In this document: positions 4,646 through 54,990 of the stretch, one piece after another | How the letters are laid out: each line of letters opens with the position of its first letter | Position numbering within the stretch: position 1 is the stretch's first letter | Assembly: GCA_027315135.1 (NCBI GenBank) | Contig: DAHUYR010000021.1 | Span: forward strand, 1 to 55,750 | Reading direction: 5' to 3' | Origin: Candidatus Micrarchaeota archaeon | Lineage (GTDB): Archaea; Micrarchaeota; Micrarchaeia; Micrarchaeales; CABMGC01 | Length of the DNA stretch: 55,750 nt | Program-made: the position numbers and the translations under genes | The notes under the pieces: model-generated | Databases searched by the model: none | Seen by the model: only the letters and a program-made list of their open reading frames with translations | What the model was told of the DNA's origin: nothing

Positions 4646-5638
4646 CTATTTATGCATAATCTTCAAAATAAGACTAGCTGCATCTCCAGTCCCGTTTTTG
4701 ATATTGATTTCTGTTTTGCTACTGCTTATACTCTTTATATAATCAATAATCCTATTTGCAGAATCTGCGCTGTTTATACTAAACGCTTTGCCTAGTCTCA
4801 TACGTTCTATTATCTTGGAGTTATTTTCCTTTTCAAGATCGCCATCTGACAGGATAATTATTGGTTTTCCAAGCATAACTGTTTCTTCAATAACGGCCAA
4901 TCCGCCATTCACAATTACTACACTAGAGTCTGCAAATGATAACATTGGTTCTTTAACAAATTCCCACATTTGTCTTTTCTGCCCTATCAGTCCTACCTCA
5001 TATCCTTGATTTGAAAGTTTTTTTGCTATCTTCTCCGACATTTTTATCAAGGAAGCATCAGAGCTTGCAGTCATGCATATAGTGATTTTCTTATGCACAT
5101 TTCTTTTTGTTACCTTACTATCAGGAAGTTGGCGTACCATTGGCCCAACGAAATGCACATTTCCTATTGACTTGTTCATTAAAATTCCATGCACTATGGT
5201 AAGGTCAGGCTGCCTGAGCATAGCCTTGCTGATATGTGCGTATCTTCTATAAACTCCGGAATCGCCTTCTATATAAGAAGGTGTACATATATGGACCAAT
5301 TTTACTTCAAGGTTCTTCAGCATGAAGAGCGAATCAATCTCACCGTCCACAACGACAACTTTTGGTGCCAACTTTTGCAACAATGGTATAACATCGTCAC
5401 ATAACTCAAACATGTCCTTCCAAGGCACCCTTGACTTTGTTTTTTCAGGTTTTTTTATTTCATATATGTTCTTAAGATTGAAATTGCGTAGGAAGTCAAG
5501 TCCATTTGCATAGCTGATATATGCACATTTTAAGCGATGCTTTGTCAGTTCCTCCCCCAAAGCGTAGCCAGGGCTCACATGACCTATGCCCGGCATGCCT
5601 CTCAATAAGAATGCTACATCTATTTTGTCTTCTTCCAT
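4646..5638 (-). CDS. GT-B glycosyltransferase, GT1/GT28 (MurG/UDP-glycosyltransferase-like)
   Basis: N-terminal GMPGIGHVSPGYALGEEL (a G-x-G-H loop as in MurG/MGT). The C-terminal VNGGLAVIEETVMLGKPIIILS...NSKIIERMRLGKAF resembles the nucleotide-sugar binding half. Confidence 0.6.
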   Translation of the reverse strand: MEEDKIDVAFLLRGMPGIGHVSPGYALGEELTKHRLKCAYISYANGLDFLRNFNLKNIYEIKKPEKTKSRVPWKDMFELCDDVIPLLQKLAPKVVVVDGEIDSLFMLKNLEVKLVHICTPSYIEGDSGVYRRYAHISKAMLRQPDLTIVHGILMNKSIGNVHFVGPMVRQLPDSKVTKRNVHKKITICMTASSDASLIKMSEKIAKKLSNQGYEVGLIGQKRQMWEFVKEPMLSFADSSVVIVNGGLAVIEETVMLGKPIIILSDGDLEKENNSKIIERMRLGKAFSINSADSANRIIDYIKSISSSKTEINIKNGTGDAASLILKIMHK

Positions 5639-7116
5639 ATCTGCAAGCCTCTGCTACCATTTTTATCAAGGACAAATCCATAGTCATTTAAACAAGTGCT
5701 AATGGCCTGTTCTGCACTGCTGTTTGTTGCCAAGTGCATTGGATGCAGTATATGCTCTTCCCTAAAAAATCTCGTGGTGAGAGCGATTGCACCTCCATTC
5801 TCTACCAAATTTGCAAGTTTAGAAAGCATATCGATTGGTCTAGGAACATGTTCAAGCACATCTGTGCATATCACAAAGTCAAAATCTCTTTTTGTATCGA
5901 TACTCTTACTAATCTCAACGTTAATTCCTTTCCTTGATGCGTACCATCTAACATAGTTAAGAAGTGAATCTGATATATCTACACATGTGGCTCTACAACC
6001 TTTTCCAGCAAGCGTAAAAACGCTATTTGCAAGGCCGCAGCCATAGTCAAGGACAGTTTCATAATTCTCGACAAGTGCGTAATTGTTGATTTCATTATCC
6101 TGCTTGCTCCAATCATCAGAGAGATGGGCAATGGCCAGGTCAAATATATAATTTCGGCTGTTTTCATAGAATTCTACGATTTCCTTTTCCGTTACTGGAA
6201 ATTTCTTAAGCCACTCGTTTCTTACCAGGATAGGGCCTATCATAATATTCTCTATGGTGTCGTTTAATTCCCATTTCAGATATAAGCTTAGTTCTTTAAC
6301 AAGGGCATATTTTTCTGGATTGGAGAGGATACCTGATTTAAATACACCCTTACATCGTTCGCAAAAGATCTCGTTTACCACTACATTTACATTGCAGAGT
6401 TTGCATTTCATCTCAATATTCTCATTCAAGAAGTTCAATATATTGTTTATACTGTCAAGATTGCCTATTCTAAATGTGTAGCCTTTATCAGGATTCACAC
6501 CTAGCCTATCAATAAAACAAAACGGAATGCCGAACTGCATGCACGCACCATCAGCTTCCAATTCATTGCCTATCATTACGGTCTCTTTGGGTTCAATATG
6601 TGTTTTTTCAATCACAAGCCTGAACATCCTTCCAGATTCCTTGTCGGCTTGCATCTCGCCTGTTATAAAAATATCCTTGAAATAAGAATCTATGCCAAGA
6701 CGCTTAAGCATTGCTCTTACAATCCTGCCTTCTCCCCTACTGACCACATACATATCATATTTATTTGCCATATCTGATAGTATTGCATCTGCACTGTCAA
6801 GCAATTTGATATTATCAAGCCTATGTCGCTCCATCTTATCTTTAAACAGTTTTTCCTGTTCTTCAGATAGGCTTATTCCAAGATATTTCCCCAGCCTTCT
6901 CATGACAAAATCCATGCCACCGTGCATCTTCTGACTCTTATTATTCACTTGATCATAATCATTTACGGCTCTGCTGAATGCTTCAGCGAACTCTTCGGCG
7001 CCTATATTAAATCCAAAATCAATCATTGCTTTATAAGCTGCACGATCCACAGTACTCTTCCAACTCTCGTTATCAATCAGCGTTCCACCAATGTCAAAGA
7101 GTATTGTTTTTAGCAT
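5620..7116 (-). CDS. Fusion protein: HAD-superfamily hydrolase + CxxC...CxxC zinc ribbon + class I SAM-dependent methyltransferase
   Basis: HAD motif I LFDIGGTLID and motif IV-like GNELEADG. Central CKLCNVNVVVNEIFCERCKG. C-terminal VLDYGCGLANSVFTLAGKG...CVDIS...FDFVICTDVLEHV is the SAM-binding fold. Confidence 0.75.
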   Translation of the reverse strand: MLKTILFDIGGTLIDNESWKSTVDRAAYKAMIDFGFNIGAEEFAEAFSRAVNDYDQVNNKSQKMHGGMDFVMRRLGKYLGISLSEEQEKLFKDKMERHRLDNIKLLDSADAILSDMANKYDMYVVSRGEGRIVRAMLKRLGIDSYFKDIFITGEMQADKESGRMFRLVIEKTHIEPKETVMIGNELEADGACMQFGIPFCFIDRLGVNPDKGYTFRIGNLDSINNILNFLNENIEMKCKLCNVNVVVNEIFCERCKGVFKSGILSNPEKYALVKELSLYLKWELNDTIENIMIGPILVRNEWLKKFPVTEKEIVEFYENSRNYIFDLAIAHLSDDWSKQDNEINNYALVENYETVLDYGCGLANSVFTLAGKGCRATCVDISDSLLNYVRWYASRKGINVEISKSIDTKRDFDFVICTDVLEHVPRPIDMLSKLANLVENGGAIALTTRFFREEHILHPMHLATNSSAEQAISTCLNDYGFVLDKNGSRGLQIWKKTK

Positions 7117-8070
7117 TCAATCCCTCAAAATGCCCTTGAAAAGTTTTAATGTGATACTAGGGTCTGTAGAATAATGAAACTCATGGCCTATTGAAGGCAG
7201 TTGCTTCAAGCCTTCTAGCTTGCTTTGTAACATATCATCTCTTTCTTTATCTGTGAATACCTGCATGAACCAATCTCTGTGCAGCGGTTTGAAAGAATTC
7301 TGCAAAATTCCTGCAATTTCATATCTCTCTTCCAAGTTAAAAACCGGATGCACTACTATGCTTATCTTGTTAGACATATCTCTGACCGAAAGATAAGCTG
7401 ACATCTCCACATATCTGTCAATATCTAGTTTTAGACCTACATATCTTCCTGCGTTTTTCCTTATCTGCGCAAGAGTGCTTATGGAATAGCTCCTGCCATT
7501 CTCTATCATGCTTCTGTCCTCAGATATTAACTGTATCGGCATCTTTGCATTTATCAGTTGCAACAACAAGGTTGTTTTGCCCTTCCCCGAATCGCCATTA
7601 ACCAGTATGCCTTCAGAACCATGGTTTATTGTTATTGCATGAATTACCGGTCTCGTAGTGGCAAGCTGTATTAATTCCAAAACCCCAACAGTGAAAATCC
7701 GGTAATCCACATCCATGAGAAGCTTGACATCTAAAATTTCATCTTTCCTATCTACTAAGATGTATCCATCACGCTTTGGCACATAGTACACTACCTTATC
7801 CTTGCCAATTTGCTTTACCTCCCAATCTACTGGTTTATCTATACCTCTATACTCAGTTTTAGATGCTGAAGTAAACGCGCCCCTGCCAATACTACTTTCT
7901 TTAGAAACAATACCTATGTTTATCTTGGCAGGCAAATCAAATAACCTTCCAGATCTTCTGTCCATAGCTTGCAAGAAGCTGTCAATTCTTTCATGCAATT
8001 CATTACTTCCTCCATAATGGGTAATTGTTGCCTCGCCAATTTTGGAAGTGATACTGGTGCTTTTAAACAT
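7117..8070 (-). CDS. HPr-kinase-related P-loop protein (HprK C-terminal-domain-like), N-terminal domain unknown
   Basis: HGSEGILVNGDSGKGKTTLLLQLINAKMPIQLISEDRS parallels the HprK/HprK-related kinase signature (G-x-L-x-x-G-x-S-G-x-GKS/T ... acidic pair). It abuts the upstream gene with no gap. Confidence 0.5.
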   Translation of the reverse strand: MFKSTSITSKIGEATITHYGGSNELHERIDSFLQAMDRRSGRLFDLPAKINIGIVSKESSIGRGAFTSASKTEYRGIDKPVDWEVKQIGKDKVVYYVPKRDGYILVDRKDEILDVKLLMDVDYRIFTVGVLELIQLATTRPVIHAITINHGSEGILVNGDSGKGKTTLLLQLINAKMPIQLISEDRSMIENGRSYSISTLAQIRKNAGRYVGLKLDIDRYVEMSAYLSVRDMSNKISIVVHPVFNLEERYEIAGILQNSFKPLHRDWFMQVFTDKERDDMLQSKLEGLKQLPSIGHEFHYSTDPSITLKLFKGILRD

Positions 8071-8133: not shown

Positions 8134-8285
8134 TGCCTGTCTCTGAAAGCAAATGCTTATTTGCACTATATGCATGCTTAAATTTTTGTACAAATTGCAT
8201 TTTATCATAATCAGCCTAGATTTTATGGTTCTTAAAACTATAACTAACATTCGACGATAGTCTACTAACAAGAACTTACTCCTGC
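8134..8285. repeat. Dispersed repeat family A, copy 1 (~152 bp)
   Basis: By eye it aligns at roughly 85% identity with 17060..17213. Shared blocks are gcctgtctctgaaagcaaatgcttatt, tttttgtacaaattgcattttatca, ttttatggttcttaaaa and agtctactaacaagaacttactcctgc. Confidence 0.85.
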
Positions 8286-8536
8286 CTTTGCAATTCCTTC
8301 CGCTCCTTGAAAATGATTATCGCTGCAGTTGCTCCTGCGATGACTATCCCTGTGCCTATTCCTTCGAAAAGTTTTTCAGGAGAGAGGCTATCAATGCCTG
8401 ATTTTCCTGTTCCGAAAGCCGTTACCACTCCTCCTGCAACAGCACCATAAGCTGTAAAAATAAATCCGTCTAACATTATGCGTCTTCTGTTACGGCTATC
8501 CTGTTCCACTTCAGGTTTTAATCGCATGTTAAACAA
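8276..8536 (-). CDS. Small membrane protein with two glycine-zipper-like hydrophobic segments
   Basis: 86-aa ORF with a basic N-terminus (RNRRR). Two G/A-rich helices (FTAYGAVAGGVVTAFGTG; GIGTGIVIAGATAAIIIF) are followed by a charged tail. Confidence 0.5.
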   Translation of the reverse strand: MFNMRLKPEVEQDSRNRRRIMLDGFIFTAYGAVAGGVVTAFGTGKSGIDSLSPEKLFEGIGTGIVIAGATAAIIIFKERKELQRQE

Positions 8537-8834: not shown

Positions 8835-9332
8835 ATGAAAGGAGCATTCTTAGACAAGAAGTCAAAGTTGGCATCAGGTCTTTCAATATTAGCTATTTTT
8901 GGGTTGGTAGCAGGAATAGTATTGGCTACTGGCACTACCGATCTGGTTTCCGCTTCAGTAACAATAAACAGTTATTGTTCATTCACAGTAAGCAATACTG
9001 CAATTGATTTTGGCAGCCTTTTCCCAGGAAATACTATACCGACTGACAATGTCATTACAGTAAGTGACACAGGAAACATTGGATCTAACATACTTACTTC
9101 AGGAAGCAACTGGGCGTTTGCATCAAACACGTTCGGCGTTACTAATACTGTATGGAGTCCAACTTCCGGAACCACCTATGCTTCAGCAACTCCTCTTACA
9201 GGAACTACTACGGATACTAAAATAGTAGTAACCACAACAACTTCAAATGATATATACTATGGTTTAGGAATCCCAGCAGGCGAAGCTCCTGGAACATACT
9301 CTCAAACTATTAACGTAATCTCGAGTTGTTGA
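8835..9332 (+). CDS. Secreted ~120-aa beta-rich domain protein, paralogue of the C-terminal domain of ORF 10258..14082 (candidate filament/pilin-like subunit)
   Basis: Sec-type signal peptide with a likely AxA-type site (LVSA/SV). The mature part aligns with the last ~118 aa of the 1274-aa protein, from CSFT...FG... through WAF..NTFGVTNTVWS to GIPAGEAPGTYSQTINxISSC*. GGTG sits 8 nt before the ATG. Confidence 0.8.
   Translation: MKGAFLDKKSKLASGLSILAIFGLVAGIVLATGTTDLVSASVTINSYCSFTVSNTAIDFGSLFPGNTIPTDNVITVSDTGNIGSNILTSGSNWAFASNTFGVTNTVWSPTSGTTYASATPLTGTTTDTKIVVTTTTSNDIYYGLGIPAGEAPGTYSQTINVISSC
9267..9322. repeat. Inverted repeat arm 1 (3' end of 165-aa gene)
   Basis: ggaatcccagcaggcgaagctcctggaacatactctcaaactat.aac.taatctc recurs as its reverse complement at 10268..10323, with 2 mismatches in 56 nt. 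Confidence 0.9.
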
Positions 9333-9364
9333 CTGATTAAAGCTTACAATACTAACGTGATAAC

Positions 9365-9994
9365 GTGGGCAATAAACTGCTTGTTTCGGTACTTCTACTA
9401 TGTACGTTATCTGTGATGGTGACAGCAGCTAACCAAACAGGAAAACTTGCCACCAATCCAACCTCTAACATTACTTCAAATAAGACAAGCAACCAAACTG
9501 TTGCTCTAGGATCCGGAGGTTTTGGAGAATTTGAAGGTAATCTTGTTTACGTTCTATCATCGGGCTCTTCACATACTGAGTACTGGACACTTGTCAACAA
9601 ATTTGCATATCCTGTAAGTTTCTACATAGTGCCTCCAAATTTCAGTGGTTCACAAGCCCCTCCAACCCTTGTATTCTCAGAGCTTAACGGAACTATACCT
9701 GCGCAGTCTAATCTGACCATAAGCGTTATTGCATATTCTCCATCATGGACAGCATATCTTTTTGACACGAACAGCAGCCACTGGAGCGGCTACGCTACTG
9801 CATATGCGTCAGGCACAGCTACAAATGCTGGCGGAGCGAGCATAGTACTGGGCACTGCAAAACTCATAATGGTGACGTTTAATCCTTCAAACATGCTCCC
9901 AACAATAATAACTGCAGTAGTGATCATAGTAGTAATTGTGGCAGTTTCGTACTATTTGTACAGAAGAAGAAAGAAAAGCAGCAGACGCAGGTAA
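9365..9994 (+). CDS. Signal-peptide protein with Ig-like/beta-sandwich-looking ectodomain, C-terminal TM anchor and poly-basic tail
   Basis: GTG start. N-terminal hydrophobic signal (LLVSVLLLCTLSVMVTA), multiple N-x-S/T sequons, and C-terminal TIITAVVIIVVIVAVSYYLYRRRKKSSRRR. Confidence 0.7.
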   Translation: MGNKLLVSVLLLCTLSVMVTAANQTGKLATNPTSNITSNKTSNQTVALGSGGFGEFEGNLVYVLSSGSSHTEYWTLVNKFAYPVSFYIVPPNFSGSQAPPTLVFSELNGTIPAQSNLTISVIAYSPSWTAYLFDTNSSHWSGYATAYASGTATNAGGASIVLGTAKLIMVTFNPSNMLPTIITAVVIIVVIVAVSYYLYRRRKKSSRRR

Positions 9995-10257
9995 CTAGGA
10001 AGTTGCCAATGCTTCTAAAGTAAGCTTCCAAAGCACTCCTACCTTTCATATATTCCTTCAAATTTTTCTAATTAACTTTATACTTTGCACCTTTTGCCTC
10101 TGTTGTTATGCTCTTAATTACGCTGCATAAGTGACATCTACTCAGAAAAAGAATTTATGGTCTGAGTTCATTCCACACTTGAAAGAGGTGCGATATTGCA
10201 AGCTCTGAAAACATTAAACATGTGCCTGTAAGCATGCAAGATATACGAACATATTCG

Positions 10258-13200
10258 TCAGCATGAAGAGATTATGTTTATAGTTTGAGAGTATGTTCCA
10301 GGAGCTTCGCCTGCTGGGATTCCTATTCCAAAATAAATATCTTTACTGTTCGATGCGCCTAAAGTAACTTCGGTATCGTATTCTGTAGATGTTAATGCAT
10401 TCGCAGTAATATATGGTACGTTTATGGACCATGACCAAACCGTATTTGTGACTCCGAAAGTATTTGTTCCAAATGCCCACGAATTTCCGCTTAGGAGCAC
10501 ATTTGAAGGAGTATTTCCAGTATTTGTTATGAGTATTGCATTTTGTGTTGCAATAACGTTTCCAGGATTTATAAGCCCAAAGTTTATTACAGAGTTACTT
10601 GTTGTAAAAGAACAGGTATTAGAACCAGACACTATTGTAAGTGTTCCGGATTTTATTGAATTTGTTGTTTCTGGGCTGTACGCTGAGTCTGTTACTATTA
10701 CATTTGTTTGCACAGTATTACCCAAATCAGCACTTGGTATTGTCCATGCAAAGCTGTTTGAGGTTCCCGATATTCCTGTAAAGAGCATGTTTGCCACTAG
10801 GTTTCCTGTTACTGTGTTTACTATTAGGTAGTTGGCAGTGTATGTAGGCGTTCCTCCTGTCCATGAAGCTGTAAAGGTTATTGTGTTGCCTGATCCAAGA
10901 CTGGCCGGCAATACTGGAGATGAGATTAGGATTGGAACTGACAAAGCCGGATTTACCGTTACTTCACTGTTTATTGAATTTGTAGTTTGGACATTAGTTT
11001 GGACAATTCCTAAGTAGTAAGTAGAGCATAGTTTAGTTAGAGGATTAATAAGAGTGCATTCTAATACGTATGCATATGAACCATCAGGGGAGATTCCAAC
11101 GTATTGAGGGTCTTTAACTGCCGAGGAAGAATAAGCCTGAGTTATGGTATTAGTCGCTGTATCAATTACATCTATTAGATATGTATTAGAAGATACTGAT
11201 GTTACGTAGGCATAGGTTCCTGAAGGAGCTATGCTCACGCCTGTTGGGTCAAAAGAAACTGTCGTTATTGAACCTGTTACTGCATTTGTGGCTGTATTGA
11301 TTATTGCTACATTAAAATTACCATTATTTGATGCATATGCAAAGGTGCCGGAAGGGGAGAATGATACTGAAGTTGGACTACTGAAGCCGCTGGATATTGA
11401 AGCTGTCACTGAGTTGGTTGCTGTGTCGATAATAGATACGGTGCCGCTATTGTAATTTGCCACGTATGCATATGAGCCGTCAGGGGAGAATGCGACACTG
11501 TATGGAAGATTCAAACCTGTAGTTATTGCTCCAGTTACTGCATTTGTAGCAGTATTTATTATTACTATATTTGTCGGAGCACCTGTGTTAACTACATATG
11601 CATATGTGCCTGAAGGAGCTATACTGACTCCCTCTGGGCTGTTAAAGCCCGCAGTTATTGCGCCTGTTACTGCATTGGTTGCTGTGTTGAGTATTACTAC
11701 ATTGTTGCCAAGAGGATCTGTTACATATGCAAAGGTGCCTGAAGGGGAGAAGGCTAATTGCCGAACATCTTCTGTATCGGACAATGTAGAACCTATGGAA
11801 GGCGAATATATGTTGTTCTCAGTTACAAATATGCAGTAATACGTGTTTGAGGCTGGGCTTACAGAAGAAAATGTTGCAGAAGTTGATGACAGTCCGATTT
11901 CCTGTTCAACTAAAGTGGACTGCTGGTTGCAGGTTGAGGTTGATGAAGAATATAAAGATGCTCCATATGTTGAGGTTCCTCCTAACCATGTGCTGCTGAA
12001 AGTTACAGACTGACCTGAATCTATTGCTGGGTCGGAAGGGCTGATTGTTGGAGTGGTTAAGCCCTGACTTATTCCGAACGTAGATGAATAAATCGAATTG
12101 AATGTTGTTGGGCTTGAATCAGTCACTATCACATTAAACTGTTCAGGCGAATTTGCCACGTCTGCGCTAGTTGTTGTATACGTGAAAGTATTGCTGGTTG
12201 CCGATACTCCTGTAAACAGCATATTTGCCGTTACTGCATCGGTTATGCTGTTTGATACTATCCAATTATAGGTATACGGACCTGTCCCTGTACTTACGGT
12301 AGCAGTACATGAGACTGATTGGCCTGATTGCATAACAGTTGTAGATGGGCAGGTTGATAAGCTTACAGAAGGTATGGGAGGAAGAACGAGTATTGGAGGA
12401 CTTGTGCCATAATTAAACACATATATTTGACCATTCCCTCCATTTCCTCCCACTCCTGCAGAGCCGCTACTACCGCCTGTACCGCCTGAAACAGTTATTC
12501 CTGATGTAGACGGAGCAGTACCTACTCCATTATATGCAAGAAGTACAAATCCACCGCCTGCTCCTCCACCACCTGATGACGAATGCTTTCCACCGCCTCT
12601 TCCACCTGAACCACCGGCAGTACCTGCCGTAGCTCCACCTGTTCCTCCTGTTGTTGCTGCAGTAGCGGTAGTGCCAGCGCCACCACTACCTAAAGCCTGT
12701 ATGGTTCCTGTAGTGATTGAATTAGCCTGTATATATATGCCGTACGCCCCGTCTCCTCCAAGATCTCCTGAACCATCACCACCGCCTCCTCCACCTGCAC
12801 CTGAATCATAGTTTACAAATGGCCCGCCGTACCATGTTTGGATTAGTGAACCTGTAATAGAAGGTAATGTTGGAGTAGAACCTGGAGAACCTGGGACACC
12901 GCCTCCTCCACCTCCTCCACCTCCGCCTCCTGAGCCTGCGTAAGAACTTGTATAGGAACCTCCAGCTCCTCCACTACCTGCTCCTCCATTCGGGCTATGT
13001 CCGGTAGATATTACGCCATTGTTTATAACACTATTACTGCAGAGTATGTCATATCCATCTGTAGTTAGCGTTATCCCTGAGTTAATAGTAAGTGAACCGC
13101 AAACAAGGTCGCTTCCCAGAATAGTACTACTAGATATGACAAGGTTTGTATTTGCAGTTGTGTAGTATACTGTAGGATCGACAGCTGAATAGTTACTGTT

Positions 13201-14082
13201 CCCTTTTGTCTCAAATACTATCTCACTTGATTCGGTGCTTGGTATATTTGAAAAAGATACCAATTTGTTTATTGAAATAGCAGATATGTTTCCACCATCC
13301 TTCAATACACCTCCTACATAAATTTTGTACGAATAGTTAATCCCTGTATTACCGGATATTGAACTTGAAAGGCTAGCGTTAAGATTATAGCTATTAGTAA
13401 GATATACTGCTGATCCAAAGGTTTTATACGGGCTGACAAGCACGTTTTCAACAGGCTCTGACGAATTGATTATAACTCTGCCTAATTTAACCTCAAGATT
13501 CGGAACTGCTTTTGTGATGGAGATATTATATAAGCGAAGTATGCTTCCATTCTGTATATATATTGCATAATGGCTGGACGTACCTGCACCGACATCTCTG
13601 CCTTTATTAGATAGATATCCGTAAGGTATTGTTAGGTTGTAGTCCTCAATCATTACGTTTTGCGCTGCAGGTGCAATACTGCATTTTGAAGAGTTGATTA
13701 GATTCTGAAGCTGCGGCGTGCTTATTGGAACAGTTGAGTTAAGTTCAGAATATAAGTTTCCCGAAAAATTGTTTTCAATATAAACCATGTTATTTTTATA
13801 GTATCTCGATATAGTTTCGTTTAATCCGTAACATAATCCGGATGTTTGGGTAAGTGCTGTCCCATTCGTCAGATTTGTTGCAACTGTGGAGTTAGGTGCT
13901 GAGTTAGTTGAATTTCTGACAGTAATGGTTGAATTATAAGACTGATTTAAGAGTGTATTCGAGGAGCTATTAACAGATGCATATGTATTGTTTGTATAAT
14001 AAGCGTATACAATGAATCCTGGTAGGATAACTATAAGTAAAGATAATATAGCATACTTGAACAGGTTTTTCATTTTATGCAT
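10258..14082 (-). CDS. Giant secreted multidomain surface protein: N-terminal sequon-rich domain, Gly-rich segment, Ig/PKD-like modules, YVTN-type beta-propeller, C-terminal domain shared with ORF 8835..9332
   Basis: It has an N-terminal signal/anchor. The Gly-rich block includes 11 consecutive Gly. Two homologous modules share ANMLFTG(V/I)S..SN.F...SAD..N...NVIVTDS. Six repeats of the type FSPSGTFAYVTD / IAPSGTYAYVVN / FSPDGSYAYVAN, each followed by I(I/L)(D/N)TATN.VT, are YVTN beta-propeller repeats. Confidence 0.85.
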   Translation of the reverse strand: MHKMKNLFKYAILSLLIVILPGFIVYAYYTNNTYASVNSSSNTLLNQSYNSTITVRNSTNSAPNSTVATNLTNGTALTQTSGLCYGLNETISRYYKNNMVYIENNFSGNLYSELNSTVPISTPQLQNLINSSKCSIAPAAQNVMIEDYNLTIPYGYLSNKGRDVGAGTSSHYAIYIQNGSILRLYNISITKAVPNLEVKLGRVIINSSEPVENVLVSPYKTFGSAVYLTNSYNLNASLSSSISGNTGINYSYKIYVGGVLKDGGNISAISINKLVSFSNIPSTESSEIVFETKGNSNYSAVDPTVYYTTANTNLVISSSTILGSDLVCGSLTINSGITLTTDGYDILCSNSVINNGVISTGHSPNGGAGSGGAGGSYTSSYAGSGGGGGGGGGGGVPGSPGSTPTLPSITGSLIQTWYGGPFVNYDSGAGGGGGGDGSGDLGGDGAYGIYIQANSITTGTIQALGSGGAGTTATAATTGGTGGATAGTAGGSGGRGGGKHSSSGGGGAGGGFVLLAYNGVGTAPSTSGITVSGGTGGSSGSAGVGGNGGNGQIYVFNYGTSPPILVLPPIPSVSLSTCPSTTVMQSGQSVSCTATVSTGTGPYTYNWIVSNSITDAVTANMLFTGVSATSNTFTYTTTSADVANSPEQFNVIVTDSSPTTFNSIYSSTFGISQGLTTPTISPSDPAIDSGQSVTFSSTWLGGTSTYGASLYSSSTSTCNQQSTLVEQEIGLSSTSATFSSVSPASNTYYCIFVTENNIYSPSIGSTLSDTEDVRQLAFSPSGTFAYVTDPLGNNVVILNTATNAVTGAITAGFNSPEGVSIAPSGTYAYVVNTGAPTNIVIINTATNAVTGAITTGLNLPYSVAFSPDGSYAYVANYNSGTVSIIDTATNSVTASISSGFSSPTSVSFSPSGTFAYASNNGNFNVAIINTATNAVTGSITTVSFDPTGVSIAPSGTYAYVTSVSSNTYLIDVIDTATNTITQAYSSSAVKDPQYVGISPDGSYAYVLECTLINPLTKLCSTYYLGIVQTNVQTTNSINSEVTVNPALSVPILISSPVLPASLGSGNTITFTASWTGGTPTYTANYLIVNTVTGNLVANMLFTGISGTSNSFAWTIPSADLGNTVQTNVIVTDSAYSPETTNSIKSGTLTIVSGSNTCSFTTSNSVINFGLINPGNVIATQNAILITNTGNTPSNVLLSGNSWAFGTNTFGVTNTVWSWSINVPYITANALTSTEYDTEVTLGASNSKDIYFGIGIPAGEAPGTYSQTINIISSC
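10268..10323. repeat. Inverted repeat arm 2 (3' end of 1274-aa gene)
   Basis: Reverse complement of 9267..9322 (see that entry). Confidence 0.9.
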
Positions 14083-14096
14083 GTAAACTACTTTAT

Positions 14097-14891
14097 TCAG
14101 CCAAAGAGTAATTTGAGCAAAGCCCTAAACAGACTGCGCTTCGGCATCCTTCCTTCAGATGCAGGATTCTCTGTCTTGTACACGTATTTTTCGCTTAGCG
14201 TGTTTGCTGCTTTGGAAAACGGATCTTTAGAATTCAGCATCACTGCAGGTATGTGCTTGGCTATGCTTATCGGAACAAGTTCGGATTCAGGGAACATGCC
14301 GTCTGGTTTCTTGCCATATATGCCACTTATGTCTCGCATCGGTATCTCATAATTCTTATGTTTAACCCTATTGATAATCAGTGAATGCTTAAGGTTGGCC
14401 TTATCATATCTGGCAGCAAGCTTCAGCACGCTTTGAAGAGCAGGGAGATCTGGAGTAGTTAATATAACAGCTTCATCATAGAAACCAGTTAATTCACTGT
14501 CGAATTGCCCTGGGGGAGTGTCTGCGATTACGAAATCATAGCCTGCTTTTATGATGTCGTTCTTGAATAATTGGTAATGTTCTGCATTGGTTAGCAGGCT
14601 CTTCGCGTTAAGCTCACATGGTACAACGTGCATTCCGCTTGGTTCATGGACTACTGTTGCATTTTGTAATTTGGTCCTTCTATAAATGACTGATTGCATG
14701 CCTATATTGACATCTTCAAGTCCGAGATGAAACCCCACGCTAGGATTTGAAAAATCAGTATCGTAAAGTAGTACTTTATAGCCCATAATGGAAAGCAGAG
14801 CAGATAGATTAACGGCAACAGTTGTCTTACCAACGCCACCTTTTTGTGAAGATATCCTGATCAGGTATACACTATCTGACATCACTATCAA
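14097..14891 (-). CDS. MinD/ParA-family P-loop ATPase
   Basis: Deviant Walker A SSQKGGVGKTTVAVNLS, then DTDFSNPS (switch I region) and a Walker B-like DFVIADTPPG. Its 264-aa size is typical of archaeal MinD-like proteins. Confidence 0.85.
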   Translation of the reverse strand: MIVMSDSVYLIRISSQKGGVGKTTVAVNLSALLSIMGYKVLLYDTDFSNPSVGFHLGLEDVNIGMQSVIYRRTKLQNATVVHEPSGMHVVPCELNAKSLLTNAEHYQLFKNDIIKAGYDFVIADTPPGQFDSELTGFYDEAVILTTPDLPALQSVLKLAARYDKANLKHSLIINRVKHKNYEIPMRDISGIYGKKPDGMFPESELVPISIAKHIPAVMLNSKDPFSKAANTLSEKYVYKTENPASEGRMPKRSLFRALLKLLFG

Positions 14892-16923
14892 TCTCGCTCC
14901 GCTTAATTCTATCGCGTAATCTTATTATTCTTTGTCTGTCCTCCGGATCTATCTGATTTACATGCCTAGCCAGTATGGACCGTAAGATTAGGTAAAAAAG
15001 CGTTATTATGATTAGAATTGATAGTGTAAAAAGTACATACTGTCTGTTTGCAAGCATAAACGATATTAGAGGATATGCTGACACCTGCTGTGCAGTATAT
15101 GTGGCTTGGCTCGGTAGTACGATTAATGGCAGTGTTTCATTGTATGATGCACCTGTTGTAGAAACTGCAAGCTGAGCTATAGTTGTACCGGTTGCATTGT
15201 AAGCGTGTATGTTGAAACTATGGCTTACCAATTCATTCGGTGTGGCATTTACATAAGCGATAGGGTTTAATATTTGCAGGTTCTGCCCTCCAGAAAGCAT
15301 GAACTTTATCTGCGCAGCAACGGTTCCGGTATATAACGCAAACACATCTACCGTACCGTTCGCATTCTGATACAAGCTCGGTGCATCTATCCTAACTATT
15401 TTCATTATGCTAGAATTTGATGCTGTTGAAGGCTCATTGAAAACAGTCTGTACATTATCTAATGCCAGAGGGCTCTGTAGTTTGTTTATTGAGTAATAAG
15501 CGTAGAGTGTTTGATTTGGAGGTAGGACCGGAACATTCCATTTTATATTATAACTAAGCTTTGTCATCGATACGTTATTTGGCATGCCGTACGCGCGGAC
15601 ATGCGAGAGGTTTCCTACGAGTAGCGGAATCTGTGCGTATAACGTTGCATTCTTTATTGTCGTATTTTTAAGAGAACTTATAGATATCGTTGCCTGCGCT
15701 GTAGAAAACGAATCGAATGATTGTACCTGCGTGGAGATGGAGACAGGCAGGTTATTAAATTGTATACTCTTGGGGTAGGATACGAATTTGGAATAAGTGG
15801 TTATTTTTACAATCTTTCCAGAAGCAGATATGCCTGTTATGTTCAATGGGATTATGTATGTTCCGCTGGGAATGCCTGAAGAGTTAAATACAAGCTGTAC
15901 GTACTGGGTGCTGTTTTTATATAATGTAATAGTTTTTGAAGAAAAGAGTAACGTATTGGAAAATTCCTGAGGCACGCTCAGATATGCTGTTAGATTATCC
16001 TGCCCAGTAAGCCCTAATATTGATGATACCTGCTGCCCAGAGGTTGTTGTGACATATATCGGCATGGAAGTTATAGATATGCCTGGTATCTGTTTTGTGC
16101 TCTGTAATACTGTTGCGTTTTGGAGATATCCTGCTGAAGCAGTAGGTACTGGCCCTACGGAAGGATGGTTTTGTACTGCGTTTATCACATAAGATACTGA
16201 ATTTGAGACATAATTTTCTGGTACGGTGTTAGAGACATATGAAAGATTTGCTGTTACAGTATATTTGCCAGGAAGTGCAGTAGCATTATTCACTATAACT
16301 ATGGTGTTCTCGCTCTCTGATGGAGATAGTGGGTTTAGTAATTGTGACAGATGATAAACAAGCGTTTTTGTTCCGGAAGACTTGGTTATTGAAAGGTTTA
16401 GAGAGACTGAATTAATAGCATAGTAACCAGAATCTTTTAAGGTAAGATAAACATAGAGAGGGGTATTTAGGTTTGCAGAACTTAAGGAGAGATTAGTTAT
16501 TATAAGACGTGCCGGTGCGAGGAGTTGAAATTCTGAAGTATTCTGATTCTGGAACCCATTGCTGTGCAGGTAAATTTTCGCAGTATAATTGCCTATTGGA
16601 ATGGAGTTCGCCACTATTGCCAGGTTTATAGTCCGAATTATTTGATTCAGGTTGCTAATATTCTGCGAGTAATTTAACACAGTGCTGCCATTTTCAGCAA
16701 GAGAAAAGTAGCCGTTCAAATCAGGTATCCCACATGTTGAAGTGGTCTGTGCTGTATAGTTTATATGTATATTTCCAATGTCAGGATATACTGGCAAGGT
16801 GGATAAATGCAGTGAGTAAGGACAGTTTATTGTGATATTGGCGTATATTAAATTAGAAGACGCATGCAACATCGTAGTACCGAGCAACAGCGCAAGTAAC
16901 ATATATGCTTTTTGAAGACTCAT
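14872..16923 (-). CDS. Sequon-rich secreted protein with C-terminal TM anchor and charged ~40-aa cytoplasmic tail
   Basis: Signal peptide (MLLALLLGTTMLHA), many N-x-S/T sites, a TM (VLFTLSILIIITLFYLIL) and the tail RHVNQIDPEDRQRIIRLRDRIKRSEIDSDVR. Its 3' end overlaps the MinD/ParA start by 20 nt. Confidence 0.75.
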   Translation of the reverse strand: MSLQKAYMLLALLLGTTMLHASSNLIYANITINCPYSLHLSTLPVYPDIGNIHINYTAQTTSTCGIPDLNGYFSLAENGSTVLNYSQNISNLNQIIRTINLAIVANSIPIGNYTAKIYLHSNGFQNQNTSEFQLLAPARLIITNLSLSSANLNTPLYVYLTLKDSGYYAINSVSLNLSITKSSGTKTLVYHLSQLLNPLSPSESENTIVIVNNATALPGKYTVTANLSYVSNTVPENYVSNSVSYVINAVQNHPSVGPVPTASAGYLQNATVLQSTKQIPGISITSMPIYVTTTSGQQVSSILGLTGQDNLTAYLSVPQEFSNTLLFSSKTITLYKNSTQYVQLVFNSSGIPSGTYIIPLNITGISASGKIVKITTYSKFVSYPKSIQFNNLPVSISTQVQSFDSFSTAQATISISSLKNTTIKNATLYAQIPLLVGNLSHVRAYGMPNNVSMTKLSYNIKWNVPVLPPNQTLYAYYSINKLQSPLALDNVQTVFNEPSTASNSSIMKIVRIDAPSLYQNANGTVDVFALYTGTVAAQIKFMLSGGQNLQILNPIAYVNATPNELVSHSFNIHAYNATGTTIAQLAVSTTGASYNETLPLIVLPSQATYTAQQVSAYPLISFMLANRQYVLFTLSILIIITLFYLILRSILARHVNQIDPEDRQRIIRLRDRIKRSEIDSDVR

Positions 16924-51861: not shown

Positions 51862-54800
51862 TTATGCTTTGCAGGCAGTTGAGGTCAGCCAAGGGCAATT
51901 GGTGGAGCTGCAGGAGTTGCCGCCAAGATCGCTGTTACCTGAAGGCGAGACTGTCGGGCAGTATATACCATATGTGGTGCCGCTCACGCTGCTGCCTGCC
52001 AATGAGGAAGAGGTTGCGCCGAAGTTTATTCCTGTGGTGGAGTTGCTTATCTTGACGCTTGATATCGTGTCTCCTGCTGACTTGTTCAGAATAATGGCAG
52101 TATCAGTCGCATTAAATATATTGACATCTTTTATAACAGAGCTTCCCGCCCCATTGAGGACTATTCCATTCACCGAGTTTGCAATGGTTGTATTCAGGAC
52201 ATTTGTGTATGTGCCTGAAGATACAATTGCCTGTGTGAAGTTCTTAAGGAAGCAGTTCTCTATCTCTATTCTGCTTGTGTTGTAGATATTCGCAAATATC
52301 CCTCCATTCTCTGCATATATGGTGTGGCCCTCGCAGTTTATGTAAGAGCCGTCAGTAAGTGTTGTCTTGTTGCTGTTGTAAACGCTGAAGCATGTCGTCC
52401 CGTAAGTGTAAAGCATATCATGCGCTATACTATATCCATTGACTGTGTTTATGGCTGTGCAGGAAGGCCTCAGCGCGCTTGCAGGAAGCTCCACAAGCCA
52501 TACGCATCCTGTCTTCGTGAGTCCATGATTCACTCCGTTCAATTCCGCATATATTCCTGAGGATGCCGGGTTGCATGCATAATCATTCGCGTTTGAATTG
52601 GCTGTGTTGTTTGCAACAAGATTATCATTCGAGCTGTCGAACACGAATCCAATGTTCTTATTGTTTGATGCGGTGTTGTTTACGAATACGTTGCGCGTGG
52701 AATTGCCGTATAGATAGAATCCGGTAGCGTTGCTCAGAAGGCTGAATGCAAGATTATTCACCACTGAGGACTGCTTCAGCCTGTATGCCTGCAGGCCGTA
52801 AACCGAATAATTATACGCCTTAACATTCTCAAACACTGAGAGTGATATGTTGTAAAGATTCACAGCAGTGCTTGCATGCAGAAACTCAGAATTGTCCAGC
52901 GTAATCCTCGATGAGTTGTATGCCGAGAATCCATACGGGAAGTTCTCAACATTGCAATTGGCAAGGGTTATATTGGAAACAGAGCTTGCATAAAATGCGC
53001 TTGATGCGCGTGAAGATCCATCATAATTGAGCAGGTGGTTATTGCAGTTTAGATTTATGTTGCTCGCCGCAAACTTAATGCATGTGCCAGTCGGTATGAG
53101 ATTAGTGTTGAGCGAATAATTACCTGCAACGCTAAGAGTCGTGCAGCTGTTGATCGGATAAGCAGCAATTGGCGGAAGAACTCTTGTTGTGCACAGGCCT
53201 GTTGCCCAGTTGCAATCAGACGATCCGCAGGAGACATCCGAAGCGATGAAGCCGCTGCTGTTGTATGAGTTCGAGCTGCAATAAAGGTCAACTTTGTTCC
53301 TCAGGATAGTTCCGTTATGAAGCACGCCTGTTGTGCTTCCATTAGTTGCTAGGCCGTATGTATTGTTGCCGGCATCTATTCTGTTGATAGTGGCAGAGCT
53401 GTTGCCAAGGTATGCTCCATATATGTTGTTGGAATAGTGCGAATCAGTTATGTTGACAAAAGAATCGTTGCTAAGATAAATTCCATAGGTGCCTTTCGAA
53501 TAGCTTACATTGCTGAACTTCAGCTCTGCGCTTCCGTTGAAGTAATTTCCATAAGTGTCATTAGCAAAATTGCAGTTTTCTAAGCTGAAGTTGAATATTT
53601 TGTTGCCGTAGATTCCATAATATGCGTTTATTATGCTCTTCCCGTTGCAGTTAAGTCTGACATTTTGGGAGAGTACTGTGATGCAGGCAGCCTTGTTCCT
53701 TGAAACATTTACATAATATGCAAGGTTGAGGTTTGACTCAAGCTCATACGTTCCTGGGGCGTTCAGAGCTCCGCATGTTGACACCTGGCTGCTTAGATTA
53801 TATGCAGCTGGGGAGAAATCATAATTTGACTTTGTGCATGTGGCAAAGTTACACTGTCTGTTGGAATTGCATCTGGAATTCGAATATGCTCCCGAAGAGC
53901 TGAATGCAGTAATGCCTGCCCCGCAATAGAGATCTACCTGGTTACCCAAGAAGGTATCTCCATAGAACAATGTATTAGAAGAGTATGTGGCAGTGCCATA
54001 ATATACATTGAACTCTATTATGCTATTGGTTATTGAAGTACCGTTGCTTCCTGTTCCTATAAGTATGGCTCCGACAGGATTGGAAGTCCCGTATACTATG
54101 TCATTTGATACTGCCGTGTACGGGCTATTCGATATAGATATGTCGGACATTGTGGAATTTCCAACAGACGAGTTCCTTATTGCAACCTGCGAAGAATTCT
54201 CAAAATATATTCCATATGAGAACCTTGTTACATTGAAACCCTGTATGGAGACGTTTGACGCATTCTCTACTAATATCCCGTAAGTATACGGTGGAGCATC
54301 TATGAATGGGCCGTTACCTGAGAGTTGCACCTTGCTTCCGGTAAGCCTGACATTGTTGCTCTTTATGACTATGCAAGCTCCGCTCGATATATGCGTAAAT
54401 ATGCCTGACTGCACAGTGTAACTTCCAGGAGTGCTTATTACACCGCATGAACTGAGCTGGTAATTCTGCTTAATTGTAGTTGTATAAGTGGTTGTACTAT
54501 GATTCCCACTATTATTGAACAGGAAGAATGCAGCTGCTACAATGGCTATGGCTATAATTGCTGCAATAACAATCCTCATGTTTGCAGCCTTCTGTGCTCC
54601 TCTTTCTCCAAGACCTATTGCATTTGTGTAAGCATTCTCAGCAGATTCCGATACGGCTTCCCCTATGGTCGGTTTAATAATATTAGATTCATCAGGAGAG
54701 GGTGTCTCTTCAATAACGTTATCCTGTGAGGCCTCAGCTTCAGGCTCCTGTTCCTGTTCACCAGAAGGCTGTGCGCTTCCGGCTCCCTGCCCTGCAGGAC

Positions 54801-54990
54801 TAGGACTTTGTGCTGTCCCGGTACCATTCTGTGAAGATCCCTGATCTGCCTGCCCTTTATTCTGTGATGTACTCTGCCCAGTATTCTGCGATGTATTCTG
54901 TCCAGTACTCTGCCCTGTACTCGGTGGAGTATTCTGTTGAGGAGTTGAATCGCTTGAATCATCATAGCTGATAGTGTCTTCGTCAACCAT
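51862..54990 (-). CDS. Type-II-anchored surface protein: disordered Q/S/T/G/N-rich N-terminal tail, one TM, about four right-handed parallel beta-helix (PbH1/NosD-like) modules
   Basis: The N-terminus is low complexity (GQSTGQNTSQNTGQSTSQNKGQ...EQEQEPEAEA). The TM is RIVIAAIIAIAIVAAAFFLF. Repeated N-x-(S/T)-rich ~22-aa beta-helix turns follow. Modules open with C..(I/L)...G.Y and close with Cys-rich motifs. Confidence 0.8.
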   Translation of the reverse strand: MVDEDTISYDDSSDSTPQQNTPPSTGQSTGQNTSQNTGQSTSQNKGQADQGSSQNGTGTAQSPSPAGQGAGSAQPSGEQEQEPEAEASQDNVIEETPSPDESNIIKPTIGEAVSESAENAYTNAIGLGERGAQKAANMRIVIAAIIAIAIVAAAFFLFNNSGNHSTTTYTTTIKQNYQLSSCGVISTPGSYTVQSGIFTHISSGACIVIKSNNVRLTGSKVQLSGNGPFIDAPPYTYGILVENASNVSIQGFNVTRFSYGIYFENSSQVAIRNSSVGNSTMSDISISNSPYTAVSNDIVYGTSNPVGAILIGTGSNGTSITNSIIEFNVYYGTATYSSNTLFYGDTFLGNQVDLYCGAGITAFSSSGAYSNSRCNSNRQCNFATCTKSNYDFSPAAYNLSSQVSTCGALNAPGTYELESNLNLAYYVNVSRNKAACITVLSQNVRLNCNGKSIINAYYGIYGNKIFNFSLENCNFANDTYGNYFNGSAELKFSNVSYSKGTYGIYLSNDSFVNITDSHYSNNIYGAYLGNSSATINRIDAGNNTYGLATNGSTTGVLHNGTILRNKVDLYCSSNSYNSSGFIASDVSCGSSDCNWATGLCTTRVLPPIAAYPINSCTTLSVAGNYSLNTNLIPTGTCIKFAASNINLNCNNHLLNYDGSSRASSAFYASSVSNITLANCNVENFPYGFSAYNSSRITLDNSEFLHASTAVNLYNISLSVFENVKAYNYSVYGLQAYRLKQSSVVNNLAFSLLSNATGFYLYGNSTRNVFVNNTASNNKNIGFVFDSSNDNLVANNTANSNANDYACNPASSGIYAELNGVNHGLTKTGCVWLVELPASALRPSCTAINTVNGYSIAHDMLYTYGTTCFSVYNSNKTTLTDGSYINCEGHTIYAENGGIFANIYNTSRIEIENCFLKNFTQAIVSSGTYTNVLNTTIANSVNGIVLNGAGSSVIKDVNIFNATDTAIILNKSAGDTISSVKISNSTTGINFGATSSSLAGSSVSGTTYGIYCPTVSPSGNSDLGGNSCSSTNCPWLTSTACKA

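Follow-up and report, generated by a model that had tools for sequence, protein, structure and literature searches.

A conserved DPANN gene cassette built around a shared β-sandwich domain: a candidate fibre or tether at the archaeal cell surface

Within a 55,750-nucleotide stretch of contig DAHUYR010000021.1 from a Candidatus Micrarchaeota archaeon (assembly GCA_027315135.1; hereafter the window), positions 8835-16923 hold five genes that a first-pass annotation, made from the sequence alone, had described as a convergent surface-structure island. The five open reading frames (ORFs) lie at the positions and on the strands given there, and the features ascribed to them hold. On the plus strand, the gene for a small secreted protein of 165 amino acids (aa) (8835-9332) is followed after 32 nt by that for a membrane-anchored immunoglobulin (Ig)-like protein of 209 aa (9365-9994). 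These two converge on three minus-strand genes encoding a 683-aa glycoprotein anchored by a transmembrane helix (14872-16923), a MinD/ParA-type ATPase of 264 aa counted from a TTG codon (14097-14891) and a giant adhesin-like protein of 1274 aa (10258-14082), an ORF with Pfam, NCBIfam and PDB matches. As the ATPase gene overlaps the stop of the 683-aa gene and its end is only 14 nt from the start of the giant gene, the three minus-strand genes look like one transcription unit. TATA-like boxes, read by eye, stand ~27 nt 5' of the ATG of the 165-aa and 683-aa genes. The ATPase more probably starts at an ATG at 14882, three codons downstream of the TTG at 14891, because the protein counted from the TTG is absent from the protein collection; with either start, the gene overlaps the end of the 683-aa gene.

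Two of these genes share a unit that the first-pass annotation had overlooked. The 165-aa protein is a paralogue of the C-terminal domain of the giant: it matches the last ~130 residues of the giant with 56% identity over 136 aa (E 1e-43), and both proteins terminate in ...APGTYSQTINxISSC. This shared unit, which we call the X domain, runs from Cys48 to the C-terminal Cys165 in the small protein (8976-9329, plus strand) and covers residues 1157-1274 of the giant (10261-10614, minus strand). Because the X domain is common to both, the small protein and the giant are physically related parts. No Pfam, NCBIfam or PDB sequence match was obtained for the 165-aa protein of the window, PDB sequence searches with the small protein and with X profiles gave nothing useful, and the X family as a whole had no Pfam or NCBIfam match above cut-off, except for one relative that just cleared the SCPU threshold. 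A word-index search returned 69 relatives, and those that are named come from Micrarchaeota, Micrarchaeaceae, Micrarchaeales or Nanoarchaeota, plus one metagenome-assembled genome (MAG) labelled Marsarchaeota; that MAG excepted, the relatives agree with the DPANN-like host that had been suspected. At larger scale, a hidden Markov model scan of 1.84 billion representatives recovered 2,076 X clusters at E <= 1e-3, of which 663 were found at E <= 1e-10. When 214 proteins were classified by architecture, 112 were single-domain, 47 were tandem X-X proteins and 55 were large proteins (427-3421 aa), with X at the extreme C-terminus in 54 of the 55. The passenger regions of the large proteins are unrelated to one another (Spherulin4, InlB B-repeat, mostly nothing known). 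Such architectures fit a joining module.

The genes also travel together. We compared 12 independent loci (the window, L001, L004/5, L006/7, L008, L011, L012, L013, L018, L019, L020 and L021), and in all 12 a small or tandem X gene adjoins a gene of the 209-aa type, so that the comparative genomics proposed in the first-pass annotation bears out a co-conserved module. Eleven of the 12 loci also have an adjacent giant that ends in X, lying directly upstream; in the window it is convergent and downstream, and in L020 it is fragmented. The adjacent giant of L001 carries a C-terminal transmembrane helix and basic tail in place of X, which points to X as an attachment module. Members of the 683-aa family occur in nine loci, either directly after the 209-aa-type gene (L004, L012, L018, L019 and L020) or followed by a MinD gene (window, L001, L011 and L021); MinD itself is present in five loci (window, L001, L006, L011 and L021). 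Gene order is kept across divergent lineages of Micrarchaeota and Nanoarchaeota, down to about 27-37% identity, and has survived rearrangements.

Further departures from this arrangement are seen in L013, L020 and L009. In the Nanoarchaeota MAG of L013 (9519-10495), the genes run in the order giant, Ig/transmembrane, small X, which swaps the last two, and these overlap by 16 nt; next comes a 407-aa protein, anchored C-terminally, whose long tail is charged and coiled, and neither a 683-aa-family member nor MinD is found. In L020 (3038-9853), the giant is broken up into five or more ORFs, the last of which has a truncated X, either as a pseudogene or through long-read frameshift errors. At L009 (6454-7054), a 169-aa ORF with homology to the 683-aa N-terminus continues straight into the final ~31 codons of an X domain, and a normal gene of the 209-aa type comes next; most of the cassette seems to have been lost here, through a deletion or because the assembly is chimeric.

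Two cysteines mark the ends of the X domain, the first after an N-terminal segment and the second as the last residue. The pair co-varies: among 261 domains, 229 have both and 23 have neither, and the nine discordant domains are mostly truncations. Mean-field direct coupling analysis (DCA) of the X domains (effective number of sequences, Neff, 176) recovered intradomain ladders and placed the Cys pair as the second strongest coupling, with the first strand antiparallel to the last. Together, co-variation and coupling argue for a disulfide that clamps both ends of the domain. Couplings of the N-terminal segment (columns 25-38, 22-37, 31-76 and 32-77) were too weak to assign it a partner strand. 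An AlphaFold2 (AF2) model of the mature domain of the 165-aa protein, computed from a 70-row alignment, is a β-sandwich of about nine strands (predicted local distance difference test, pLDDT, 95.4; predicted template modelling score, pTM, 0.84), and the first 18 mature residues (TGTTDLVSASVTINSYCS) lie outside any β-ladder of the monomer. It supersedes a model of the full-length protein from a 19-sequence alignment, which was unusable (pLDDT 54). X domains avoid N-x-S/T sequons about seven-fold, with 130 found against 952 expected and none at all in 187 of the 261 domains; the X domain of the small protein has 0 where 3.4 would be expected.

The small protein begins with a Sec-type signal peptide or hydrophobic N-terminus (residues 1-31; 8835-8927, plus strand; hydrophobic window residues 11-36), for which a cleavage site was inferred. 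Neither MKGAFLDKKSKLASG... nor the N-termini of its relatives contain an RR (twin-arginine) motif, and no consistent class III (PibD) [KR][GA] cleavage site is present in the small protein; its closest relatives have ordinary AxA-type sites, for example AKA↓Y and AFA↓F. A Pfam scan of 29 window ORFs found no type IV pilus or archaellum family, including T2SSE, Peptidase_A24 and FlaJ, in agreement with the first-pass claim that no known archaeal filament machinery is encoded here. On its signal peptide and the absence of the machinery from these ORFs, a type IV pilin reading of the small protein was rejected. Elsewhere in the X family, the distant members P0066-P0069 (~187 aa) lack both cysteines and start with MAKNG↓MEMILVGAVIGAVVML..., an N-terminus (MAKNG↓MEM...) that is reminiscent of class III (type IV pilin-like) signals in archaea. 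If this signal is real, type IV pilins of some lineages may use the same β-sandwich as their head domain.

Between signal peptide and first cysteine, the small protein carries a strand segment, DLVSASVTINSY (8940-8975, plus strand), with the motif [VI]-x-[AG]-x-V-x-[VI], which is our candidate donor strand. In the 112 single-domain X proteins the motif positions are 85-93% conserved and stand directly before the first Cys; conservation is slightly lower in tandem X domains (Ala/Gly 57% in tandem d2). Among the X domains of large proteins, 34-40% lack an alignable segment and the Ala/Gly position is lost, and in two of the eight giants that were looked at, a Pro-rich linker takes the place of the strand segment. 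The same signature reappears in the 683-aa protein as IYANITI (16828-16848, minus strand), directly after the signal peptide. All ten 683-aa-family members have [VI]-x-[AG]-x-[VILA]-x-[VI] at this position (for example IYANITI, IKATVNI, VPASVTV, VIASVSV, INGSVTV, IITGSVTV and IVSANVVV), and beyond residue 60 of six such proteins the motif occurs only twice in 3,685 residues. When 76 signal-peptide-like ORFs from the window and the other loci were inspected, 16 had the motif: nine small X proteins, five 683-aa-family proteins and two apparent transmembrane helices. In L004, L012, L018, L019 and L020 the 683-aa-family motif stands before the first PKD-like module, indicating that it is a free N-terminal extension. 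The idea that the N-terminal domain of the 683-aa protein is a divergent X domain was rejected (hhalign probability 0.3%).

The giant was expected to have a hydrophobic N-terminus, a Gly-rich block and YVTN repeats, and all three were recovered. Its N-terminal 340 residues (13063-14082, minus strand, as are all segments of the giant) comprise a hydrophobic signal or anchor and form the sole sequon-bearing region, with 20 sequons against 9.5 expected; residues 341-1274 have none, where about 20 would be expected. A Gly-rich block read from the sequence (residues about 365-560; 12403-12990) leads to two Ig/PKD-like modules (residues about 565-765; 11788-12390), which were recognized by internal similarity to Ig-like repeats of L004/L005 proteins and have approximate boundaries. 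Next comes a YVTN β-propeller (residues about 770-1015; 11038-11775; TIGR02276 E 2.5e-27 over five stretches), which matches the Methanosarcina surface layer protein of PDB 1L0Q with E 7.8e-53. A further Ig/PKD-like module ahead of X (residues about 1030-1150; 10633-10995; boundaries approximate) resembles the Ig-like repeats of an 885-aa protein of L004. Between the giants of the window and of L004, identity is 45% over residues 164-712, the Gly-rich block included.

The 209-aa protein, previously called an anchored Ig-like protein, is indeed an anchored Ig protein, and profile matches give a more precise picture, of one ASH/PapD-like Ig domain carried on a membrane stalk. It consists of a signal peptide, an N-glycosylated spacer, the Ig-like domain of ASH/PapD-like type (9515-9880, plus strand; block GGFGEF...YWTL.N...NGTIP...LGTAK) and a C-terminal transmembrane helix (hydrophobic window residues 173-200) with an RRRKKSSRRR cytoplasmic tail (9881-9991, plus strand). 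Like the 683-aa protein, it is two-fold enriched in sequons. A word-index search found 21 family members, which lie on the same contigs as small X genes and always adjoin one. Their common layout is a signal peptide, a ~115-residue β domain, a Thr/Ser stalk whose length ranges from 0 to over 100 residues, a transmembrane helix and a basic tail, with the N-glycosylated spacer in the subgroup of the window. The consensus of the β domain reads GFGE(Y/F)..G.L.Y...S.(H)TEYWTL.N....P..F......F....NGTI......I.V.....W.GYATA......G.A.I..GTAK. When 24 family members were compared with Pfam, matches were to Ig_CFAP65_4th in eight (best E 1.1e-5), Ig_CFAP65_8th in six, HYDIN_VesB_CFA65-like_Ig (PF22544) in three (best E 5.5e-9, from a Nanoarchaeota homologue) and Cep192_D6 in three; Cep192_D3, ASH, OCRL-like ASH, DUF1573 and fn3_5 were also matched. 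The window protein itself matched weakly (Ig_CFAP65_4th, E 0.064), and hhalign linked its family to the Nanoarchaeota homologue with a probability of 84.5% (E 6.9e-6). A PDB search with the family profile gave nothing useful. ASH-type Ig domains are termed 'ASH / PapD-like' in the title of PDB entry 6fvi. The sequence of the 209-aa protein shows one membrane-tethered domain, where a PapD chaperone has two domains.

The 683-aa protein is sequon-rich and anchored, as the first reading had it: 26 N-x-S/T sequons were counted against 12.6 expected, and a transmembrane helix at residues 628-655 precedes a 28-residue charged cytoplasmic tail (14875-15042, minus strand). It had no Pfam, NCBIfam or PDB sequence match. 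Family members have the C-terminal half, transmembrane helix and charged tail in common, and their N-terminal halves vary, some bearing PKD-like modules that resemble those of the giant. A suspected relation between the length of the cytoplasmic tail and the presence of MinD was dropped once more loci had been examined. Because it contains neither S_layer_N (PF05123) nor any other S-layer domain, the idea that the 683-aa protein forms the S-layer of Micrarchaeota was rejected; PF05123 is present in SLP_Mh of Ca. Micrarchaeum harzensis (bioRxiv 10.1101/2021.04.28.441871). The cassette could still be an S-layer-associated module in which the 683-aa protein is a membrane stalk of the S-layer, MinD positions envelope growth or division and X proteins dock in the lattice. 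The Micrarchaeota S-layer is glycosylated, its anchoring is not known and a second transmembrane-bearing stalk protein has been suggested (bioRxiv 10.1101/2021.04.28.441871); a sequon-rich, C-terminally anchored protein would suit that role, the propeller of the giant resembles the Methanosarcina 'surface layer protein', and contacts between proteins could bury X domains that lack sequons. However, the missing S-layer family match, the absence of the cassette as such from L013 and of the 683-aa family from some loci, and the company of hypervariable giants, in which a housekeeping anchor is not expected, make this very unlikely.

That the 264-aa protein is a MinD/ParA P-loop ATPase was corroborated by matches to AAA_31, ParA and CbiA and by a deviant Walker A motif, KGGVGKT (14823-14843, minus strand). 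Its match to NCBIfam minD_arch (E 2.4e-28) scored 99 bits against a cut-off of 201.75, so we regard it as a member of the MinD/ParA superfamily and not as an equivalog. By sequence, its C-terminal amphipathic segment, PKRSLFRALLKLLFG (14100-14144, minus strand), would be a MinD-type membrane-targeting helix. Both KGGVGKT and the C-terminal amphipathic helix (RSLFRALLKLLFG and equivalents) are kept in the cluster-linked MinD proteins of L001, L006, L011 and L021. A second ParA-like gene lies beside ftsZ in L011 (11848-13805) and has a degenerate Walker A, KGGVGTT, without the C-terminal amphipathic helix. A deviant Walker A and a C-terminal amphipathic helix are likewise found in MinD/ParA positioning ATPases, such as archaeal MinD4 and TadZ/CpaE of Tad pili, and the linkage of its gene to a surface-structure cluster is a further likeness. 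The cassette ATPase differs in falling below the minD_arch cut-off, and no MinC/MinE partner was seen.

How might these parts work together? The reading we tentatively lean towards, with a little less than an even chance of being right, is that the cassette makes a Sec-dependent, strand-complemented fibre or tether at the cell surface, built as tip, shaft and anchor without type IV pilus machinery. Directly observed are the shared domain, the co-conservation of the genes, the Cys pair, the spread of the strand motif and the class of fold. Strand complementation, the length and polarity of any polymer and what the 209-aa protein and MinD do are inferred, like every function given here to the cassette, from sequences, the neighbourhood of the genes and a single predicted structure of a monomer. 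The giant would sit at the tip, with its propeller, Ig/PKD-like modules and Gly-rich block as binding modules and an X domain that acts as acceptor only. Small or tandem X proteins, as both donors and acceptors, would form the shaft by head-to-tail addition, the N-terminal strand of each small protein entering the X domain before it or adding to the edge of that domain. At the base, a 683-aa-family protein, offering a donor strand and no X, would hold the end of the chain in the membrane by its C-terminal transmembrane helix, which makes it a candidate base or anchor subunit. On the outside of the membrane, the 209-aa Ig protein may assist X domains that have just been exported, as chaperone or holdase, or may provide a second anchor; on the inside, the MinD-type ATPase may bind through its amphipathic C-terminus and position or cluster the anchor.

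This fibre would account for the shared domain, the strict C-terminal position of X, its replacement by a transmembrane helix in L001 and the tandem forms, as well as for the way in which the strand motif is distributed among three classes of protein and for the N-terminal segment that stays unpaired in the monomer model. Archaeal filaments held together by donor-strand complementation (DSC) are known to assemble without chaperone or usher (PMC11821415, PMC12337348, PMC12518558), and the Tafi filament has a tip protein (TafC), shaft subunits (TafA/TafE) and a C-terminally anchored protein, TafF (PMC11821415, PMC12337348, PMC12518558). Donor-strand polymerisation of the small protein is plausible. 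The first-pass annotation had gone in the same direction, imagining a self-contained appendage module with the small protein as polymerising subunit and the giant as adhesin; the co-conservation of the genes, the kinship of small and giant proteins and the DPANN-like host speak for it, whereas the Saci_0406 threads and AbpA, two of the subunit types to which it had likened the small protein, are absent among the top 50 structural matches.

Several results weigh against the fibre. In a Foldseek comparison with the PDB, the X monomer found nothing at E < 1e-3, and TM-scores did not exceed 0.56. The head of the weak top list (E 3e-3 to 0.1, TM 0.4-0.55) is the N-terminal sandwich of GH123. Profile comparisons point the same way: in Pfam scans of two sets of X-family members (70 and 92, E <= 1; for the 92, results are from the 25 most frequently matched of 50 families), the commonest likeness was to GH123_N_2, a non-polymerising sandwich, in 37 of 162 members (best E 3.9e-6), through a C-terminal 'P-x-G-x-x-G-x-Y-x-x-x-I' hairpin, and this is stronger than the likeness to SCPU. 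DCA and the Cys pair set the first strand against the last, leaving no groove of the chaperone-usher type between them; with these strands paired and disulfide-locked, any acceptor site must differ from the chaperone-usher groove. X domains are poor in sequons, while archaeal thread subunits are reported to be glycosylated (10.1101/2022.04.26.489512). About 60% of the large proteins retain a strand-like segment ahead of the Cys, which makes 'acceptor only' an imperfect label for their X domains. Finally, a very confident model of a lone monomer is compatible with a complete, self-sufficient β-sandwich.

Likeness to bacterial donor-strand subunits nonetheless recurs within these comparisons. 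Such subunits are frequent among the weak Foldseek matches (TasA fibre, CsuA/B, the PapG pilin domain, FimG, FimA, PapA, Caf1 and SafA), the first six of them at E 4e-3 to 6e-2, and the TasA fibre 8aur ranks second (E 3.8e-3, TMq 0.49). Of the structural relatives that the first-pass annotation had named for this comparison, TasA and the SCPU/Csu pilins were therefore weakly matched, and Saci_0406-type threads and AbpA did not appear in the top 50. A Foldseek search of viral structures returned generic β-sandwiches only. Pfam SCPU (PF05229) was matched at E < 1 by nine of the 162 members, with the window protein unmatched, and DUF4402 by eight. The best case, P0047, reached 23.6 bits against a gathering score of 22.4, with residues 32-69 on profile positions 3-40; the match runs through the N-terminal 'strand-Cys-strand-FG' part. 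Profile-profile alignment by hhalign gave no signal between X and CsuA/B alone (probability 0.5%; the CsuA/B sequence is 100% identical to PDB 7zl4). Against a nine-sequence SCPU profile, built with four SCPU operons that were fetched, it gave a colinear alignment over 126 columns (P 0.0087), but two of 30 block-shuffled controls scored equally high, so that this likeness does not go beyond the controls and adds to the points against the fibre. Overall, the resemblance of X to Csu/SCPU pilins recurs but falls short of establishing homology.

These weak and generic matches could also mean that the cassette encodes co-regulated but physically independent envelope proteins. X would then be a stable C-terminal β-sandwich cap, the small protein a soluble secreted paralogue (for example, a decoy or a lectin-like protein), and co-location a matter of shared regulation or export. 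The best profile likeness of X to generic β-sandwiches (GH123_N_2 and also NPCBM_assoc), the weak, generic structural matches and the confident fold without a partner all agree with this. We nevertheless consider it quite unlikely, as gene order is tightly conserved across divergent DPANN lineages despite rearrangements, X stands at the extreme C-terminus in all but one of the large proteins, the strand motif is shared with the anchored 683-aa family, and a membrane anchor can substitute for X in L001.

Another arrangement without a fibre is suggested by the WxL clusters of Firmicutes. In WxL loci, a small protein is nothing but the WxL domain, a large protein ends in this domain after its binding domains, and a transmembrane-anchored Ig protein is predicted to insert a β-hairpin into it (PMC10599100). 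By analogy, the 209-aa Ig protein would bind X, perhaps by strand insertion, and hold the giant at the surface in a non-polymeric display complex, and the small X-only protein would occupy, regulate or stabilise the same docking sites. The cassette shares the three-part logic, including a transmembrane-anchored Ig partner of the kind proposed to give a β-strand to the shared domain (PMC10599100); the small X and Ig/transmembrane genes are the pair that is adjacent in every locus; a transmembrane anchor stands in place of X in L001; the monomer folds confidently; and WxLIP (9i1y_B) is among the weak structural matches. Yet no sequence relationship was detected: none of the scanned members of the X and 209-aa families matched WxL (PF13731), DUF916 or DUF3324 in Pfam. 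WxL clusters, moreover, have neither a 683-aa-type anchor with a shared strand nor MinD. Display alone would leave unexplained the strand motif common to small X proteins and the 683-aa family and the frequency of tandem X-X proteins (47 of 214), and this archaeal group has no peptidoglycan for wall contact. We judge a WxL-like complex, the main rival of the fibre, to be somewhat unlikely.

If the strand-complemented fibre is taken as a working model, its closest parallels are filaments of non-type-IV design. As in Tafi, Mth60 and other DUF1102 filaments, there is no usher, and the subunit is a small β-sandwich with an N-terminal strand (PMC11821415, PMC12337348). At the level of architecture only, the cassette also resembles Tafi in having a multi-domain tip protein that shares the subunit fold and a terminator with a C-terminal membrane helix. 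DUF1102 itself was absent among the Pfam families reported for the 162 X members (the best 25 of 50 for 92 of them) and for the window protein. Unlike Tafi proteins, those of the cassette have Sec-type and not twin-arginine signal peptides, although Sec-type relatives of DUF1102 are known (PMC11821415), and the pilin-like domain of the tip protein is C-terminal here and N-terminal in TafC. Beyond Tafi, the cassette has a disulfide clamp, an ASH/PapD-like Ig/transmembrane partner and MinD, and no TafD-like peptidase was seen in it. The lineages differ as well, the cassette being found in DPANN and filaments of the Tafi class in haloarchaea or methanogens. Like the archaeal threads (Saci_0406) and bundling pili (AbpA/TasA-like), the fibre would be made of Sec-exported β-sandwich subunits; thread and bundling pilus subunits join through N-terminal donor strands and need no dedicated ATPase for this (PMC9715654, PMC9245690). 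Thread subunits, besides their glycosylation, are reported to be reinforced by isopeptide bonds (10.1101/2022.04.26.489512), unlike the sequon-poor X domain with its putative disulfide, and no camelysin/TasA Pfam match was found for the X family.

The bacterial Csu/SCPU pili are archaic (sigma) chaperone-usher pili, with CsuC as chaperone and CsuD as usher. Likenesses to them are an N-terminal 'alternating hydrophobic strand - Cys - strand - (N/D)FG' pattern, a C-terminal 'G-x-Y-x-x-T-hydrophobic' strand, a tip adhesin with a C-terminal pilin-type domain (as in the two-domain CsuE), a neighbouring Ig protein of the PapD-like class and a neighbouring protein of 680-890 aa, about the size of an usher. 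However, the archaeon lacks an outer membrane, the 683-aa glycoprotein spans the membrane once, has no usher match and is no β-barrel, and the Ig partner is one-domain and membrane-tethered where PapD is soluble and two-domain. The two-domain PapD-type chaperone and outer-membrane usher present in the fetched SCPU operons have no counterpart in the cassette. The cysteines differ too: in X they would join the first strand to the C-terminus, whereas in CsuA/B the disulfide is formed by Cys16 and Cys62. A bolder proposal, which we think unlikely, is that the cassette is a DPANN, outer-membrane-independent counterpart, possibly even a homologue, of the Csu/SCPU pathway, with Sec export of SCPU-like subunits, a membrane-tethered single-domain PapD-like handler, a donor-strand polymer under a giant two-part tip adhesin, a transmembrane-anchored terminator that gives the last donor strand, and MinD placing the assembly at the host-contact site.

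The surroundings of the cassette in the window are those of an ordinary archaeal chromosome, with genes for GatD/GatE, PheRS, SMC and aIF5B. A minus-strand gene at 51862-54990 encodes a 1042-aa protein with NosD/right-handed β-helix repeats (E 3e-25), a large surface-type protein without an X domain. On the other side of the cassette, the minus strand carries a 498-aa HAD hydrolase-SAM methyltransferase fusion and then a 317-aa HprK-related P-loop protein (5620-8070), neither of which is kept beside the cassette in other loci. Between the HprK-like gene and the cassette lies an 86-aa ORF (8276-8536, minus strand) in which an RNRRR stretch precedes a hydrophobic segment rich in Gly/Ala and which has a weak TAT-signal-like match (E 0.047); it is not conserved elsewhere.

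How episymbiotic DPANN archaea recognize and hold their hosts is an open question. Cryo-ET has revealed remodelled contact sites, and filaments at contacts between a Micrarchaeon and its host and on ARM-1 cells, whose protein composition is not known (PMC8975820, PMC11329633). The literature that we searched contained nothing that links DPANN to donor-strand filaments or describes this cassette. It belongs to a known kind, that of non-type-IV surface assemblies of the strand-complemented or docking type, and is built from unannotated families. As a candidate host-attachment system, the cassette supplies a set of candidate parts: a hypervariable giant adhesin, the X joining domain, a tethered PapD-like Ig protein, a strand-bearing anchor and a MinD that could explain a localised attachment site. 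If strand complementation holds, X would be a further subunit family of non-type-IV archaeal filaments and the first tied to DPANN, with suggestive links to the bacterial Csu/SCPU pili. Should the cassette also prove to be a counterpart of the Csu/SCPU pathway, it would bring donor-strand pilus biogenesis with a PapD-like factor to the Archaea and would put a name to the attachment organelle of Micrarchaeota and Nanoarchaeota.

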